In this document: positions 21,555-28,339 of the stretch, in pieces
How the letters are laid out: the number at the start of each line of letters is the position of its first letter
Position numbering within the stretch: the first letter of the stretch is position 1
Source of the DNA: Candidatus Paracaedimonas acanthamoebae
GTDB lineage: Bacteria; Pseudomonadota; Alphaproteobacteria; Caedimonadales; Caedimonadaceae
NCBI GenBank assembly: GCA_000743035.1
Contig: CP008939.1
Location: 60,001-92,000, forward strand
Length of the DNA stretch: 32,000 nucleotides
Direction of reading: 5' to 3'
Notes under the pieces: model-generated
Told to the model about the DNA's origin: nothing
Seen by the model: only the letters and a program-made list of their open reading frames with translations
Databases searched by the model: none
Position numbers and translations under genes: made by a program

Positions 21555-23240
21555 TTATAATATATCCTTCTTAAAATCGTAGTTTTTTAATAAGGTTTTT
21601 GCTATTGGCTTAATCTCTCTATATTGGCTTGCAGCAGCAAGCTTAAGGACTTCTAAAGCATCCTCTGAAGCATCGTCTAATTGAATATCTCTTTCTAAGA
21701 ACGGCTGAATTCTATGATAATTCAAGTTTTTTATTCTAGACATTTCTTCATGCACACCTTCGGTATTGGCCATTATCATAGCCTCAATAGTAGGTTTAGC
21801 TGCCCTTAGCAAAGAAGCACTTTTAGGTAAAGCTGAGCTAGAAGCTCCTGATGCTTTTCCAGTTCCTATCGAAACTAGCATCATATTTTCAACACTACAG
21901 TTAAAATGATTCATCATTCTATTATAAACTAATTGTGAAGGATTATTATACCATAGTCCGCCATCCACAAGATTCATTGCTCTAGTGCGTTTGATATTCC
22001 ATACTTCAGCTGCAGGGAAAAAAGTTGGAGCCGCAGAAGTTGCAAGTCCAACGTCAACAATTAAGAAATCATTATTGTCATCTGCAAGTGCTTCCAAGCT
22101 TTCAAAAGTCTGTGCTCTTTTAAAAAGTAGAGAATTGTCAACTGCATGAACTGCTGTTGTAAGGACAGGCTTAATAGCCTGGCTTAGACGCGCTTCGTAA
22201 AAGGAACTCTCTAATAAACCTCGTAAAGGAGCCGCAGAATAACGAGCTGACCAGAAAAGATCTTTAAACGTATAGAATGTGCTTGTTACTAGATCTAATT
22301 TTTTTTCCCTTGGGAAAATATTCTTGCTATGATTGTATAATAGCTCACTAAAATGATTAGCAGAATAGTAGGGGCTTTGATATTCTCCTATAGTTAGCCC
22401 TAGAGCTATAATCCCCCCAATCGATGTCCCTCCTATAAAATCAAATAATTCGGCTATTTTTTTACCTGTAACCCTTTCTATTTCTTCCAAGCAGAGACAA
22501 AGATTTAACCCTCTAATACCGCCCCCATCTAAGGACAGACCATAATAGAAGGGTCTCTCAAGGCTTTTAACACTATTTCTTCGAAAATCTAATTCCAGAT
22601 CTTCATATTCTTCTAAGATTTGGTCTCTTTGTTGGTGTGTTTTGTATTTTATTTGTCTCACAAGGGCAGTAGGATTAGCATCAATAGGGTTAGTCCCGAC
22701 CAATATTCTTTTCAAGTTTTCTATAGGAGAAATAAGAGAAGGACTTAAATAAGTCTCTATCTGTAGGCGCTGCTCTAAATTATCAAGGATGCTTTTGGTT
22801 TGATCTACCTCATCTTGACTAATAGTTATTATTTTTTCAGCATAATCTCTCACACGCAAGAGTTTCCTTTGTTGCTCTGCTTCTCTTTGTTGCCTATCAC
22901 TTTTTAAAAACATACTTTTTCTATAATATTCTTGAGTTTCCTTACGAAGCTCATTAAGTTTGCTTTGAAACTGTGCCTCTTTTTCTTTATCTTCTCTCTC
23001 TAACAGAGATATAGTTTTATGGTTTTCATCTAAAGCCATTTGGTATTGCTCTTCTAGCCTTTTTCGTTGGCCCTCAAGCTGCTCTAAGCTTGTATTTATA
23101 TTAAAGTAATTAATTGTTAAGTTAGGGCGATATGATTCAATATCCATCTTAGGCACTCCCGAAGATCTCGCAGGATGATATAAATTTAATATTATACATG
23201 GTAAAACCATACAATATTTAACAATATGAATATTTTTCAT
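21555..23240 (-). CDS. patatin-like phospholipase with signal peptide and a long N-terminal coiled-coil
   Basis: DGGGIRG, GGTSIGG and DGGLWYNNP are present. AGGAG lies 8 nt upstream of the ATG at 23240 (MKNIHIV...), which I prefer over the TTG at 23273. Confidence 0.88.
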   Translation of the reverse strand: MKNIHIVKYCMVLPCIILNLYHPARSSGVPKMDIESYRPNLTINYFNINTSLEQLEGQRKRLEEQYQMALDENHKTISLLEREDKEKEAQFQSKLNELRKETQEYYRKSMFLKSDRQQREAEQQRKLLRVRDYAEKIITISQDEVDQTKSILDNLEQRLQIETYLSPSLISPIENLKRILVGTNPIDANPTALVRQIKYKTHQQRDQILEEYEDLELDFRRNSVKSLERPFYYGLSLDGGGIRGLNLCLCLEEIERVTGKKIAELFDFIGGTSIGGIIALGLTIGEYQSPYYSANHFSELLYNHSKNIFPREKKLDLVTSTFYTFKDLFWSARYSAAPLRGLLESSFYEARLSQAIKPVLTTAVHAVDNSLLFKRAQTFESLEALADDNNDFLIVDVGLATSAAPTFFPAAEVWNIKRTRAMNLVDGGLWYNNPSQLVYNRMMNHFNCSVENMMLVSIGTGKASGASSSALPKSASLLRAAKPTIEAMIMANTEGVHEEMSRIKNLNYHRIQPFLERDIQLDDASEDALEVLKLAAASQYREIKPIAKTLLKNYDFKKDIL

Positions 23241-23257
23241 AATAATACTCCTAATTT

Positions 23258-27900: not shown

Positions 27901-28339
27901 TTTAGCCAAATATTATTTAGGTATTTTATATTGTGGAACTGGAAGGCAAAATTTAGCAAAAAAGAATCTTCAAGAAAGCTTAAAGAATTATGAGAGAATC
28001 TATGGGACTCACCATATTGAAACAGCGCGTATATTAAGGGCTTTAGCATGCCTTTATATGGCTCAAGATCAACTTGAAACTGCAGAAAATTTATTGTTCA
28101 GGTCATTGTCAATTTTTAAACTCAGTTCGCATCCTGAGCAATTTATGGATTATGAACTCTTAGCAGATTTATACCGCAAAAAAGCCCAAGGGAAAGGCCC
28201 TTTGCAATCAAGCTTTTTTCTCAAAAAAGCGGAACAGAACTTGCAGCAGGCCATTTCCTTAGGTAAAGTTTCTTATGGAGAGAAAACCCCTCATTTATTA
28301 AGGGTACTCGCTAAGCTTGAATTTTTTAAAAAGCATTAG
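24914..28339 (+). CDS. STAND NTPase with an N-terminal LuxR/GerE-type HTH, an unknown region, one hydrophobic segment, an NB-ARC-like P-loop NTPase and C-terminal TPR repeats
   Basis: The HTH is FTRREIEIIACLMNGRPPKGIGALLSLSPRTIEVHIYNIFKKLEV. The hydrophobic stretch is FSYSLLGALGISLAGFYFIKGFY. Walker A is GMGGMGKTTLA, Walker B is WILIYDNVE, followed by VILTTRN and PPFPLDVTLAAQYL (GLPL-like). About 10 TPR units of the kinesin-light-chain type follow. The start is TTG at 24914 or GTG at 24917, after AAGGGAGA. Confidence 0.85.
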   Translation: MVQNKTSNIFESSLKDILDFIYIHQLQVLHNVHFTRREIEIIACLMNGRPPKGIGALLSLSPRTIEVHIYNIFKKLEVNSKESLITLIEKTSHIFTLKKFYLYLSWLKEFEKNLEIIARLPFHKGAVQIVGWKEDISDRAYFLKALEETLKQAGFITSLVIIDEPFPNIKFQKNQPIQSLIYFLPIQTLKGLFSTKEQKEFLSASSSYSLISVYLLEEGILPSPYLSVECKHYLNRNALFLDIIKLIANHADITKITESFIAHTQSIESPPFFSSTIPSRKNKSVLSSWLSIKGFSYSLLGALGISLAGFYFIKGFYHGPLKQRHKIEIQSELPIPTPAFFLERPVLMVHMHKSLKGQKGIQTIALIGMGGMGKTTLARHYARIYKESLVWELNAETPENLSRSFETLAESLIHTEEDKIFLQQIKDIKEDYKRLEKMVGFVKHRLKQHPHWILIYDNVEQFSDIKYYFPYDATLWGPGKVILTTRNSNIQNCLYINAHLQIPALNPEEREDLFSKVHSSSKEQTLEERKDLKVFLEQVPPFPLDVTLAAQYLKNTKASYNEYLGALYHDEANLSQSHKEILTSSQNYHQTRYSIIKLSIEKMLQKHPDFKDFLILLTLIDSQAIPKFLFEGYKSKDLVNTFIQDLHHYSLISYNTSSQGLATFSIHRSTQEMMRAYLLKKLNLTLNDPRLYILSEFLEKFIYDTVLEEDFAKIRKLMNHGEALLKHTNLLTDEQRGYLGCQVSGFYLLLNIYSKATETLNKSLKLLKNAKKIKPECLKIDLRKANILVYRGIVKKCLGEYKAALSDVQAGLEIYRTLFPTHYMRLSWTLEHLGDVSLYLGHYKDGVNYLKESVALLKNYMPKDDLRISTSLIKLGKAYVENGDYLLAKNSLEESYHIQTQKILKKHYRLISWNLGFLGKVYKALGYYEKAQELFQQGKKLHQIHLPDNHDDIAWFSLHIGNLLTEMGSYHEAEIMLKEALGECQKYLPPQHSSIFLAKYYLGILYCGTGRQNLAKKNLQESLKNYERIYGTHHIETARILRALACLYMAQDQLETAENLLFRSLSIFKLSSHPEQFMDYELLADLYRKKAQGKGPLQSSFFLKKAEQNLQQAISLGKVSYGEKTPHLLRVLAKLEFFKKH

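Follow-up and report, generated by a model that had tools for sequence, protein, structure and literature searches.

STAND ATPases that are fused to DNA-binding domains and activate adjacent operons are known from MalT, the AfsR/SARP-NB-ARC-TPR proteins, GutR of Bacillus subtilis and the LAL family. The locus described here lies in a 32,000-nucleotide stretch of the Candidatus Paracaedimonas acanthamoebae genome (contig CP008939.1, positions 60,001 to 92,000), referred to below as the window. It encodes a regulator that resembles MalT/LAL, AfsR and GutR in joining a P-loop STAND/NB-ARC switch and a TPR-like sensor arm to a DNA-binding domain, beside nearby operons that in those systems are activated. 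A preliminary description of the locus had called a STAND sensor that switches on a neighbouring lipase operon an undescribed arrangement, a view that is not supported, given that MalT, AfsR, GutR and LAL proteins already couple STAND ATPases to DNA binding.

AfsR and GutR also share with the regulator the order N-terminal DNA-binding domain, NB-ARC, TPR, and the GutR gene is likewise divergent from its target. By contrast, the DNA-binding domain of MalT/LAL proteins is C-terminal, whereas here it is N-terminal and of LuxR/GerE type, and that of AfsR is an OmpR/SARP winged HTH instead of a LuxR-type domain. The regulator belongs to neither the MalT family (NCBIfam MalT, 23.3 bits against a cut-off of 537, covering the HTH only) nor the AfsR/SARP family (NCBIfam AfsR, 23.9 bits against 1430). 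We know of no transmembrane (TM) helix between DNA-binding domain and NB-ARC in MalT, LAL, AfsR or GutR proteins.

The predicted layout of the regulator, with an N-terminal cytoplasmic DNA-binding domain, one TM helix and, at the C-terminus, a large sensor outside the cytoplasm, is that of ToxR, CadC and TcpP, which bind DNA from the membrane. However, these have OmpR-type winged HTH domains and small periplasmic sensors, whereas the regulator combines a DNA-binding domain of GerE/LuxR type (Pfam, Foldseek), not the OmpR winged helix of ToxR, with an 800-aa NB-ARC-TPR ATPase module that would need nucleotide outside the cytoplasm. With the quorum-sensing activators LuxR and TraR it has in common the LuxR-type HTH and, as proposed below, an 18-20-bp palindromic operator abutting the -35 (class II), autoregulation and divergent targets; unlike them, it has no autoinducer-binding domain, its sensor being NB-ARC-TPR, and no LuxI homologue was detected adjoining any family member. 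The membrane-spanning LuxR-type regulators of Eggerthella lenta and other Coriobacteriia, an Actinobacterial family, similarly have a LuxR-family HTH on a membrane-embedded part, many paralogues and control of adjacent genes (PMC9734109). They lack an NB-ARC/TPR module, the term "NB-ARC" being absent from that paper, and differ in architecture and hosts (PMC9734109).

Domain content of the regulator

The regulator protein contains, from N- to C-terminus, a LuxR/GerE HTH, an alpha/beta domain, a single predicted TM helix, an NB-ARC (STAND) ATPase and a TPR array, which bears out its earlier identification as a STAND-HTH protein (Pfam).

24914..28339, + strand: regulator (STAND-HTH) gene, 1141 aa (ORF and Pfam)
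25013..25171, + strand: LuxR/FixJ-type HTH, aa 34-86, recognition helix ...SPRTIEVHIYNIFKKL (Pfam, AF2, Foldseek)
25289..25717, + strand: alpha/beta domain, predicted cytoplasmic, aa 126-268 (AF2 model from alignment A2)
25796..25861, + strand: predicted signal-anchor TM helix, aa 295-316, GFSYSLLGALGISLAGFYFI (hydrophobicity and charge)
25967..26653, + strand: NB-ARC nucleotide-binding module, aa 352-580 (Pfam NB-ARC)
27131..28213, + strand: TPR sensor array, about aa 740-1100 (Pfam TPR_12, TPR_10, TPR_MalT)

Comparison with P0004, a homologue 40% identical to the regulator, indicates that the gene might start at GTG 24917. The matches to GerE, NB-ARC, TPR_12/TPR_10 and, in the neighbouring operon, Patatin all exceed the Pfam curated cut-offs. 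The HTH is a member of the GerE family (PF00196; 51.2 bits against a cut-off of 23.5, aa 34-86), was modelled with pLDDT >90 (AF2), and matches the DNA-binding domains of NarL, GerE, LiaR and VraR in fold (rmsd 0.7-0.9 A, TM about 0.8; Foldseek); its DNA-contact positions are near-invariant across the family (alignment A1, Foldseek). A long helix (aa 94-119, AF2 model) precedes the alpha/beta domain, for which Foldseek gave no confident PDB match beyond weak flavodoxin-like, B12-binding and SIS ones (E about 4e-3).

The NB-ARC module (44 bits against a cut-off of 23.5, Pfam) displays a Walker A motif (GMGGMGKTT), a Walker B motif (LIYDNV) and a TTR motif, with a family-invariant His667 (SIHRS) slightly downstream. 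In alignment A1, G368, G371, G373, K374, T375 and H667 are invariant, and D457/N458/V459 and R486 are near-invariant. The protein is a STAND/NB-ARC ATPase by its Walker A and Walker B motifs, sensor Arg, MHD-like His and C-terminal TPR sensor; in the latter, TPR_12 matches with 104 bits in 4 stretches, and TPR_10 and TPR_MalT match as well (Pfam).

The regulator family and its predicted transmembrane helix

Regulators of this multi-copy family occur exclusively in protist endosymbionts of the Paracaedibacteraceae/Holosporales and on plasmids of Megaera. A homologue search returned 91 members, mostly from Paracaedibacteraceae; the carriers include Paracaedibacter symbiosus, Paracaedimonas, Caedibacter and related MAGs. 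Most members have a LuxR HTH as output domain and some a TIR domain, and in the paralogue at locus L010 a cleavable-looking signal peptide replaces the HTH; this signal-peptide variant has no second TM helix.

The conserved TM helix between HTH and NB-ARC is the truly unusual feature of this family. A hydrophobic 19-mer, conserved in position and not in sequence, is present 45-65 aa N-terminal of the P-loop in 72 of the 84 family members. Across the family its flanks have a mean net charge of +3.3 (N-terminal) and +0.5 (C-terminal), and the N-flank is the richer in K+R in 59 of the 72. The helix of the window's regulator is the weakest of the family (KD 1.58, flanks +4/+4); residues 297-316 were modelled as a helix (AF2). 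The strong positive-inside bias predicts a ToxR-like topology, based on hydrophobicity and charge alone, that would place the NB-ARC-TPR sensor outside the cytoplasm. The helix had been missed in the preliminary description.

Candidate operator boxes in the intergenic region

The four ORFs, the 219-bp gap between the divergent cc1 and STAND genes and a perfect 18-nt inverted repeat within it were all found where they had been described. The repeat (24801-24818 / 24828-24845) has a spacer of 9 nt. When up to 3 mismatches are allowed, 0.07 matches are expected per whole window; 3 were found, none of them beyond this site. Each arm is itself palindromic (TAAGTA-CAATC-TACTTA), so that the repeat amounts to two 17-bp palindromic boxes, TAAGTA-N5-TACTTA.

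24724..24745, - strand: weak terminator-like hairpin, 7 bp with 3 G-C pairs, followed by a T-rich tail; situated in the cc1 leader, between the boxes and the gene start
24801..24818, no strand: left operator box (candidate), 17-bp core 24801-24817, TAAGTAcaatcTACTTA, mirror of the right box, facing the cc1-cc2-patatin operon
24828..24845, no strand: right operator box (candidate), 17-bp core 24829-24845, TAAGTAgattgTACTTA, 3 nt ahead of the -35-like hexamer of the regulator promoter
24849..24877, + strand: sigma-70-like promoter of the regulator gene, TAGACA-17 nt-TAAAGT

The exact box recurs solely beside the closest regulator homologues. Upstream of P0004, box and promoter are 87% identical across 55 nt, with the right, promoter-proximal box alone conserved. 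Both promoter hexamers of the regulator gene are kept at locus L005, and a -35-like hexamer follows the box after 2-3 nt in the window, at L005 and in three L022 paralogues. At L001 a 17-mer identical to the left box is located between the stop codon of the homologue P0002 and an operon that follows it and encodes three signal-peptide proteins, and not ahead of the regulator. Boxes of the same kind lie 85-145 nt upstream of paralogues; about half of the paralogues have no detectable box in their upstream regions.

A generalised palindrome, TA[AC]G[TG][AG]-N5-reverse complement, was found 16 times in 592 kb, compared with 0.32 in shuffles; half of this enrichment is circular, because 8 of the 16 lie <=300 nt upstream of the query gene of their locus and the pattern was derived from those upstream regions. 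The other 8 are independent and are mostly found upstream of further paralogues or beside short LuxR genes and genes for signal-peptide proteins. The class of the box follows the recognition helix: TAAGTA occurs with E[V/A]HIY, TACGGG with ETHLR and TAAGGG with EAHMR, while TACGTA boxes pair with ETHI[R/N] helices, including those of short LuxRs of different architecture. Same-class members being close paralogues, this covariation represents about 4-6 independent lineages. Because paralogues carry related boxes at the same upstream position and box class co-varies with recognition helix, the intergenic repeat is a very good candidate for the regulator's operator, and the earlier proposal of a regulator with its own operator gains support at the level of sequence.

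No convincing sigma-70 promoter for the minus-strand operon was found between the left box and cc1, so that it is by position and symmetry that control of the operon by the regulator is suggested. The terminator-like hairpin in this leader (1 found, 0.3 expected) forms in RNA folding and is possibly an attenuator or due to chance. Amongst the 19 paralogues that have an upstream neighbour, 12 are divergent from it, and the genes beside paralogues encode, among others, signal-peptide proteins, a protein with Sel1 repeats and one that resembles ricin lectins. The conserved unit is regulator plus box plus variable, mostly exported cargo.

The divergent operon

The cargo in the window is a tightly packed minus-strand operon.

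23975..24694, - strand: cc1, 239 aa, first gene of the operon; ORFan, highly charged, helix-prone
23258..23965, - strand: cc2, 235 aa, 9 nt after cc1; ORFan with a charged heptad-periodic region
21555..23240, - strand: patatin-like phospholipase, 561 aa; ORF extends to 23273, likely true start ATG 23240

With ATG 23240 as the start, patatin follows cc2 after a 17-nt gap and does not overlap it; 561 aa is also the length stored in the protein database. The sole match of cc1 among 5.8e9 proteins was cc1 itself, and it has no Pfam, NCBIfam or PADLOC family; cc2 likewise matched only itself among 1.84e9 representatives. All three proteins had been described as coiled-coil, a call that is heuristic here: it is plausible for cc2 and the patatin N-terminus, where the heptad signal is moderate (the latter was modelled as a 115-residue helix, AF2), while for cc1 it comes down to composition and a weak heptad signal. 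On inspection, also heuristic, each has a signal-peptide-like n-region, h-region and AxA-like site (cc1 VFA-SS, cc2 SLA-SN, patatin ARS-SG), the automated signal-peptide rule having overlooked obvious cases. Secretion of cc1, cc2 and patatin is plausible on these features.

Behind its signal-peptide-like N-terminus, patatin consists of a helical stalk (about aa 51-223) and a catalytic domain (aa 235-548). It is a patatin-like phospholipase (PF01734, E=2.5e-20, 74 bits against a cut-off of 27.7, Pfam) with the motifs DGGGIRG, GTSIG and DGG, in which D238-G241, G271/S273/G275 and D426-G428 are invariant (alignment A3).

Proposed function of the locus

We consider it fairly probable that the regulator is a one-component LuxR-HTH/TM/NB-ARC/TPR transcription factor, that the repeat provides two operators of its own, and that it controls its own gene and probably the exported, host-directed cc1-cc2-patatin operon. 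Each 17-bp box would accommodate one HTH dimer, and the right box, abutting the -35 of the regulator promoter, would have the class-II geometry of LuxR. A signal perceived at the TPR/NB-ARC module would lead to nucleotide-dependent oligomerisation, which would cluster the membrane-tethered HTHs onto both boxes and thereby autoregulate the regulator gene and probably turn on the operon. On this reading cc1, cc2 and patatin would be exported by Sec and have their site of action beyond the bacterial cytoplasm, with host or vacuolar membranes as the most likely target, and would not serve in anti-phage suicide. The cargo would be interchangeable: paralogues adjoin other, mostly exported proteins. 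In its likely role as a phospholipase A delivered outside the bacterium onto host membranes, patatin resembles Rickettsia Pat1/Pat2, Legionella VipD and Pseudomonas ExoU; however, in fold it falls outside the ExoU/VipD class (TM about 0.26-0.27 to VipD and ExoU, Foldseek), and unlike the secreted effector patatins it would be exported by a Sec signal peptide, not by T3SS/T4SS signals.

Alternatively, the boxes might serve the regulator gene only, the operon being unrelated cargo brought in by IS-mediated rearrangement. The conserved STAND-patatin linkage on which the preliminary description hinged is absent: a patatin lies within 10 kb at none of ~26 regulator-family loci, the regulator is found at none of 80 generic CapV-like patatin loci, and neither cc1 nor cc2 has any homologue. 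IS3 (20064-21268) lies on one side of the module and IS6 and IS110 (28498-30518) on the other, in plasmid-like, transposase-rich surroundings with toxin-antitoxin genes; taken with the unconserved linkage, this could mean that the juxtaposition of regulator and patatin is recent. The lack of a clear operon promoter and the single box kept ahead of P0004 also fit autoregulation alone. Against this, the left box faces the operon as an exact mirror image of the right one, and the L001 box precedes an operon for signal-peptide proteins instead of the regulator. Moreover, the divergent layout with exported-protein genes recurs at L014 (twice), L016 and L022 (twice), and two of the four closest patatin homologues adjoin a LuxR-type gene (L009, divergent) or an NB-ARC-TPR gene (L010). 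We regard autoregulation alone as rather unlikely, and continue to favour control of both the regulator gene and the operon.

Among the proteins that amoeba symbionts export, many have eukaryote-like repeats. The STAND-LuxR protein might be one of them, an effector acting in the host with its hydrophobic segment in host membranes, the palindromes being bound by another factor; the signal peptide that stands in for the HTH at L010 and the limitation of the family to intracellular symbionts are in line with this. It is nevertheless improbable, as the class of each box changes together with the recognition helix of the very protein encoded next to it, the HTH is of the bacterial LuxR/NarL type with near-invariant DNA-contact positions, and the Lys/Arg cluster ahead of the helix is typical of a stop-transfer or signal-anchor segment of the bacterial inner membrane.

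A shade less probable again is anti-phage defence by abortive infection, in which the STAND protein would sense infection and a CapV-like patatin degrade the membrane, as in CBASS or Avs. The catalytic domain of patatin is indeed closest to CapV/CapE, sharing fold and motifs with the cGAMP-activated CapV of CBASS and with plant patatin-17 (PDB E about 1e-16; Foldseek TM 0.73-0.81 to patatin-17/CapV/CapE), and the PADLOC phospholipase effector model matches it (E=7e-56); the regulator family has TIR-bearing variants, and mobile elements and toxin-antitoxin genes abound nearby. However, a scan of the window ORFs with Pfam, NCBIfam and PADLOC turned up neither a CD-NTase nor another signal generator, and the NCBIfam CBASS_lipase model (NF041079) scores 181.4 bits, below its curated cut-off of 200, so that with no adjoining cyclase the locus does not qualify as CBASS. 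Unlike CapV, patatin has a predicted signal peptide, as do both its ORFan operon partners, and a ~220-aa helical N-terminal extension. The STAND protein matches no Avs/bNACHT model (PADLOC gives a 17-bit PtuA-like P-loop match only), and its N-terminal output domain is a DNA-binding HTH. Finally, the genes clustered with a second patatin in the window and with the L010 patatin are not defence genes but encode secreted trypsin-like proteases and an LRR protein. An immune role of the patatin module is unlikely, in agreement with the earlier leaning towards a host-directed role of exported proteins and away from abortive infection, which the three predicted signal peptides, the missing CD-NTase and the lack of a defence-model match for the STAND protein uphold.

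Least probable of all is that the repeat is a nucleic-acid structure (RNA hairpin, terminator/attenuator or cruciform) or a terminal repeat bounding a small mobile element: the region is IS-rich and would form an 18-bp hairpin if transcribed (region MFE -45 kcal/mol, z=-4.4), but the site lies between divergent genes, and the single promoter identified has its -35 downstream of it, with nothing to terminate, its stem is AT-rich with no adjacent T-run, it matches no Rfam family and has no further copies within the window, homologues carry a single box unable to form the long hairpin, and the box sequence tracks the HTH.

Possible implications for host sensing

The bacteria that carry this regulator family reside in the protist cytosol and import host ATP. 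We tentatively propose, as a possibility that we hold to be somewhat doubtful, that the NB-ARC-TPR module is extracytoplasmic (N-in/C-out), an NLR-like ATPase sensor that faces the periplasm and uses host-derived nucleotide. It would respond directly to cues from the host or the envelope and relay them through the inner membrane to the cytoplasmic output domain (LuxR HTH, TIR in some members), which would switch on, via cognate operators, a set of exported host-interaction proteins specific to each paralogue, the patatin operon being one example. If true, the module would be the first STAND/NLR-type receptor outside the cytoplasm, and the family would constitute a dedicated "host-sensing" regulator family of Holosporales and Rickettsiales symbionts.

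Organization of the locus

All four ORFs lie in the order set out in the preliminary description, with a divergent gap of 219 bp, and the gap contains the perfect 18-nt inverted repeat reported there (24801-24818 and 24828-24845, 9-nt spacer), which is far beyond chance. Each arm of the repeat is palindromic by itself (TAAGTA-CAATC-TACTTA); the site therefore consists of two mirror-image 17-bp boxes with centres about 28 bp apart. The features of the locus are as follows.

21555-23240, minus strand: patatin
23258-23965, minus strand: cc2, putative coiled-coil protein
23975-24694, minus strand: cc1, putative coiled-coil protein
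24801-24817: left box
24829-24845: right box
24849-24877, plus strand: sigma-70-like promoter of the regulator gene (TAGACA-17-TAAAGT)
24914-28339, plus strand: regulator, 1141-aa STAND-HTH protein

The regulator carries a GerE/LuxR HTH (aa 34-86), an NB-ARC domain (aa 352-580) and TPR repeats, all above the curated Pfam cut-offs. The last gene of the operon encodes a patatin of 572 or 561 aa (Pfam, E=2.5e-20); its start is most likely the ATG at 23240, which gives the 561-aa form held in the protein database and leaves spacers of 9 and 17 nt between the three minus-strand genes. Neither cc1 nor cc2 has a family match in Pfam, NCBIfam or PADLOC, and both are ORFans, matching only themselves among 5.8e9 proteins (cc1) and 1.84e9 proteins (cc2).

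Putative operators and the regulator promoter

Only 3 nt separate the end of the right box from the sigma-70-like promoter of the regulator. The 55-nt stretch comprising right box and promoter recurs with 87% identity ahead of the gene for homologue P0004 (on contig L005), whose protein is only 40% identical to the regulator. The exact 17-mer also occurs once beside the gene for homologue P0002 (54% identical), 14 nt past its stop codon and ~140 nt upstream of an operon encoding three signal-peptide proteins. In the window, L005 and three paralogues of locus L022, a -35-like hexamer lies 2-3 nt after the box and is followed by a -10-like TAAAGT or TAAGTT, a spacing that matches the geometry of class-II LuxR-type activation. 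A metagenome scan for box plus -35 (TAAGTANNTTGTACTTANNGTAGACAGGCA) gave 0 matches; L005-type contigs were not recovered either, and the collection therefore lacks relevant samples.

When the regions upstream of paralogues were searched de novo for palindromes, boxes with this geometry turned up 80-145 nt ahead of the start codon, for example CTACGTA-N5-TACGTAG, CTAAGGG-N5-CCCTTAG and CTACGGG-N5-CCCGTAG. In 592 kb of loci the pattern TA[AC]G[TG][AG]-N5-reverse complement was found 16 times, compared with 0.32 in shuffles, although 8 of the 16 copies are the upstream sites from which the pattern was derived, so that the enrichment is circular for those. The other 8 are independent, and nearly all fall into four kinds of place: upstream of additional paralogues within the same loci (L014:1340, L022:1404, L022:13585), beside short C-terminal-HTH LuxR and signal-peptide genes (L017:5245 and 7165), at a paralogue stop (L019) and in the window (19776).

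The half-site varies with the recognition helix of the adjoining protein.

Box classes and recognition helices of the regulator family
TAAGTA; helix E[V/A]HIY; window, P0002, P0004
Box region beyond the contig end; same helix as the TAAGTA class; P0003
TACGTA; helix ETHI[R/N]; L016, three L022 paralogues, two short LuxRs of L017
TACGGG; helix ETHLR; L014 (two copies)
TAAGGG; helix EAHMR; L020, L023

Position 3 of the half-site tracks the residue before the conserved His, and positions 5-6 track the residue after it; members of one class are closely related, and the independent covariation events are therefore few, about 4-6. To this covariation the short LuxRs add a data point that does not depend on shared architecture. 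The N-terminal 342 residues were modelled with AF2 (pLDDT 78.6), and the HTH of the model superposes on the NarL, GerE, LiaR and VraR DNA-binding domains at 0.7-0.9 A. We infer that the boxes, as putative operators, are very probably cognate to the adjoining regulators.

The short LuxR proteins themselves are 265-295 aa long with a C-terminal GerE domain (L017:5245-7181; L009:1419-2216). Those of L017 are flanked by TACGTA-type boxes and signal-peptide genes, and the ETHI recognition helix is common to short LuxRs and the STAND-LuxR paralogues of the TACGTA class.

Within the window, Rfam has no family. Between the boxes and the start of cc1, the leader contains a weak terminator-like hairpin with a T-rich tail (24724-24745, minus strand); one such hairpin was found and 0.3 expected, and it could be an attenuator or chance.

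Linkage to the patatin operon

The preliminary description had let its proposal of a sensor switching on a lipase operon depend on conserved linkage between STAND-HTH and patatin genes. Such linkage is not conserved: none of the ~26 family loci has a patatin within 10 kb. Likewise, 80 generic CapV-like patatin loci (656 kb in total), taken from a metagenome scan with a patatin alignment and serving as negative background only, contain no STAND-LuxR relative, and no comparable palindromes were found upstream of the other patatin operons (L008-L011).

A looser pattern does recur. The upstream neighbour is divergent in 12 of 19 regulator paralogues, and these neighbours are varied, including unannotated signal-peptide proteins and 17-repeat Sel1, ricin-lectin-like, GTPase-like and transglutaminase-like proteins; their signal-peptide fraction was left out of the evidence, the automated rule being too strict (it missed cc1). 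All four of the closest patatin homologues on usable contigs are preceded by two or three small signal-peptide ORFs. The L009 patatin operon is divergent from a short LuxR-type gene, and the L010 patatin lies 2.4 kb from an NB-ARC-TPR paralogue. Given this pattern, the conserved unit is the regulator and box with interchangeable, mostly exported cargo, which in the window is the patatin operon.

Two apparent relationships were discarded. The small ORFs upstream of the L008, L009 and L011 patatins have no BLASTP homology to cc1 or cc2 and are analogous in position only, and the divergent neighbours of L020 and L023 (209 and 192 aa), considered as LuxI-like, have no Pfam match even at E<=1.

A search of the stretch from the left box to cc1 gave no convincing sigma-70 promoter, a weak point that leaves the case for operon control with the mirror-image boxes and the recurring arrangement. 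The earlier interpretation is supported in part. In the mechanism proposed here, the membrane-tethered regulator would bind both paired cognate operators and would control its own gene and probably the adjoining exported-protein operon. On balance we think it likely that the locus encodes a membrane-tethered LuxR-STAND one-component regulator with paired putative operators, autoregulation and probable control of an exported-protein operon that includes a CapV-like patatin.

Nature of the cargo proteins

The patatin motifs GGGxRG, GxSxG and DGG are intact. In both sequence and fold the protein is nearest to plant patatin-17 and the CBASS lipases CapV and CapE (PDB E about 1e-16, Foldseek TM 0.73-0.81) and far from ExoU/VipD (TM about 0.26). 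A role in abortive infection would fit the likeness to CBASS lipases; the NCBIfam CBASS_lipase score is 181 bits, below the 200-bit cut-off, no cyclase was found among the window ORFs scanned with Pfam, NCBIfam and PADLOC, and the STAND protein matched no defence-system model. Each of cc1, cc2 and the patatin begins with a predicted n/h/c-type signal sequence and an AxA-like site, and a helical stalk of ~220 residues precedes the patatin catalytic domain. Together these features make a lipase module that is exported and directed at host or envelope more likely than abortive infection, in line with the preference expressed in the preliminary description.

Nearly all cargo N-termini (21555-24694; L001:3743-5767; L008-L011) have a signal-peptide-like segment followed by an acidic stretch, such as ASSHFDAEAEE, ASENDDE, AMDLDEFD or ASEEDLE, which may be a lineage-specific export or sorting signal.

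A second, CapV-like patatin (8630-9847, 405 aa, 32% identical to the first) opens a cluster (8630-15944) that continues with weak trypsin-like ORFs of 465 and 589 aa and a 917-aa LRR protein; patatin and trypsin-like genes are also combined in L010, a locus of a Holosporales MAG. The sizes 405/465/589 aa recall capV-cdnA-cap2, but the downstream ORFs are weakly trypsin-like and a cyclase is absent, and the cluster looks like exported hydrolases and repeat proteins, not CBASS.

Predicted transmembrane helix and topology

A hydrophobic segment of 19-23 residues, 45-65 residues before the P-loop, is present in 72 of 84 family members; it lies between HTH and NB-ARC, is conserved in position and not in sequence, and is missing from distant matches outside the family. 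Mean K+R is 3.97 on the N-flank versus 2.38 on the C-flank (higher on the N-flank in 59 of the 72), and net charge is +3.3 versus +0.5. The regulator in the window has the weakest such segment of the family (KD 1.58, flanks +4/+4), but AF2 still models it as a helix (297-316).

By the positive-inside rule the HTH and alpha/beta domain are predicted to be cytoplasmic, as DNA binding needs the HTH to be. This would place NB-ARC-TPR outside the cytoplasm, in a ToxR/CadC-like topology, and the TIR and signal-peptide variants of the family agree with such a reading. Since the residues that bind nucleotide do not vary within the family, nucleotide must be present wherever NB-ARC sits. The family is confined to intracellular symbionts, in which ATP/ADP translocases importing host ATP are common (PMC4198247). 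Imported ATP must cross the symbiont periplasm, which makes an extracytoplasmic STAND sensor conceivable here. To our knowledge such a sensor would be unprecedented, and we advance it tentatively, as the less probable case. The predicted outside-facing, NLR-like sensor is the feature that would make the regulator categorically new.

Distribution and variants of the family

For the regulator 91 homologues were detected, mostly in Paracaedibacteraceae/Holosporales that live as endosymbionts in amoebae and ciliates. Identity is 54%, 53% and 40% for the three nearest and about 30-35% for the others. The genome scan gave about 26 family loci in Paracaedibacter symbiosus, Caedibacter sp. and related MAGs, often with two or three tandem paralogues in one locus. 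The family is also found on plasmids of Candidatus Megaera polyxenophila (Rickettsiaceae), and thus crosses from Holosporales to Rickettsiales, probably via plasmid transfer. On one 48-kb plasmid (CP113872.1, L042) the match at 7001-10231 is surrounded by BON-domain, porin, Pal and stress-protein genes; two further Megaera plasmids carry copies.

Variants with TIR-TM-NB-ARC-TPR architecture (P0051, P0061, P0071) retain the same helix. The L010 paralogue (4368-7595) has a cleavable-looking signal peptide in place of HTH and TM helix, and no second hydrophobic segment. These NB-ARC-TPR proteins point to a modular "output domain - membrane - sensor" family. The L010 signal peptide is joined to a domain common to a neighbouring trypsin-like protein.

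Tandem arrays of 2-3 paralogues occupy 13-17 kb (L014:1434-13435, L022:1512-17020, L013:6515-13384, L018:172-6980). Some are interleaved with paralogous signal-peptide genes, and the 314-aa and 255-aa ORFs of L014 have a common N-terminus, which suggests that regulator-box-cargo units were duplicated as a whole. Immediately ahead of the P0004 gene, L005:6-146 encodes 46 codons from the N-terminus of a further LuxR-type paralogue (…FTRREIEIMVLSYL*), and the P0002 and P0003 contigs break <=170 nt upstream of the gene; together these suggest that the sequence in front of all three genes is repeated or rearranged.

Genomic surroundings

The window looks plasmid-like and IS-rich, with a DnaA_N-type Rep, ParA, SSB, resolvase and MazF. 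Mobile-element-rich stretches, which include DUF6119, lie at 96-5002, 16070-17563, 20064-21268 and 28498-31919, and the regulator-patatin module is bracketed by IS3 and IS6:

20064-21268: IS3
28498-30518: IS6 (IS6/IS240) and IS110 transposases

At 19776-19792 there is a third palindromic box, which belongs to a different class (TAAGGGtattcCCCTTA). It precedes a 430-aa signal-peptide ORF on the minus strand (18044-19336) by 440 nt and has the IS3 element on its other side. It may be the orphaned operator of another paralogue. No remnants of a second STAND-LuxR paralogue were found near this box and IS3; a 21-codon ORF starting MMVQN at 19976 is too short to count as one.

Relation to known systems and significance

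Activation of neighbouring operons by STAND ATPases with a fused DNA-binding domain is classical (MalT/LAL, AfsR, GutR), and the earlier claim of an undescribed arrangement was too strong in view of these activators. The regulator is not a member of the MalT or AfsR families by curated scores, and it differs from them in the type and position of its DNA-binding domain and in its TM helix. ToxR-like proteins are also membrane-tethered but lack the NB-ARC-TPR module. Membrane-tethered regulators are known, too, from the membrane-spanning LuxR-type family of Eggerthella (PMC9734109), which, as described, lacks this module. Full-text literature searches returned no paper combining Paracaedibacter with NB-ARC or LuxR.

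How Holosporales sense and manipulate their protist hosts is poorly understood, and the secreted molecules have not been defined experimentally; the 2025 review stating this (PMC11909080) does not mention LuxR, TPR, patatin or phospholipases. The locus offers a concrete unit, in which a multi-copy regulator family with predictable operators lies beside exported candidate host-interaction proteins. Since the operators are predictable, regulons can be read from complete genomes. If only the conservative reading holds, the regulator is a further STAND transcription factor whose domain order and target are unusual. As far as we know, STAND/NLR proteins in bacteria, plants and animals have so far been cytosolic sensors. 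If the predicted topology is true, this paradigm would be extended to a transmembrane, outside-in signalling receptor, and one that would require host ATP in the periplasm of energy-parasitic symbionts (PMC4198247).
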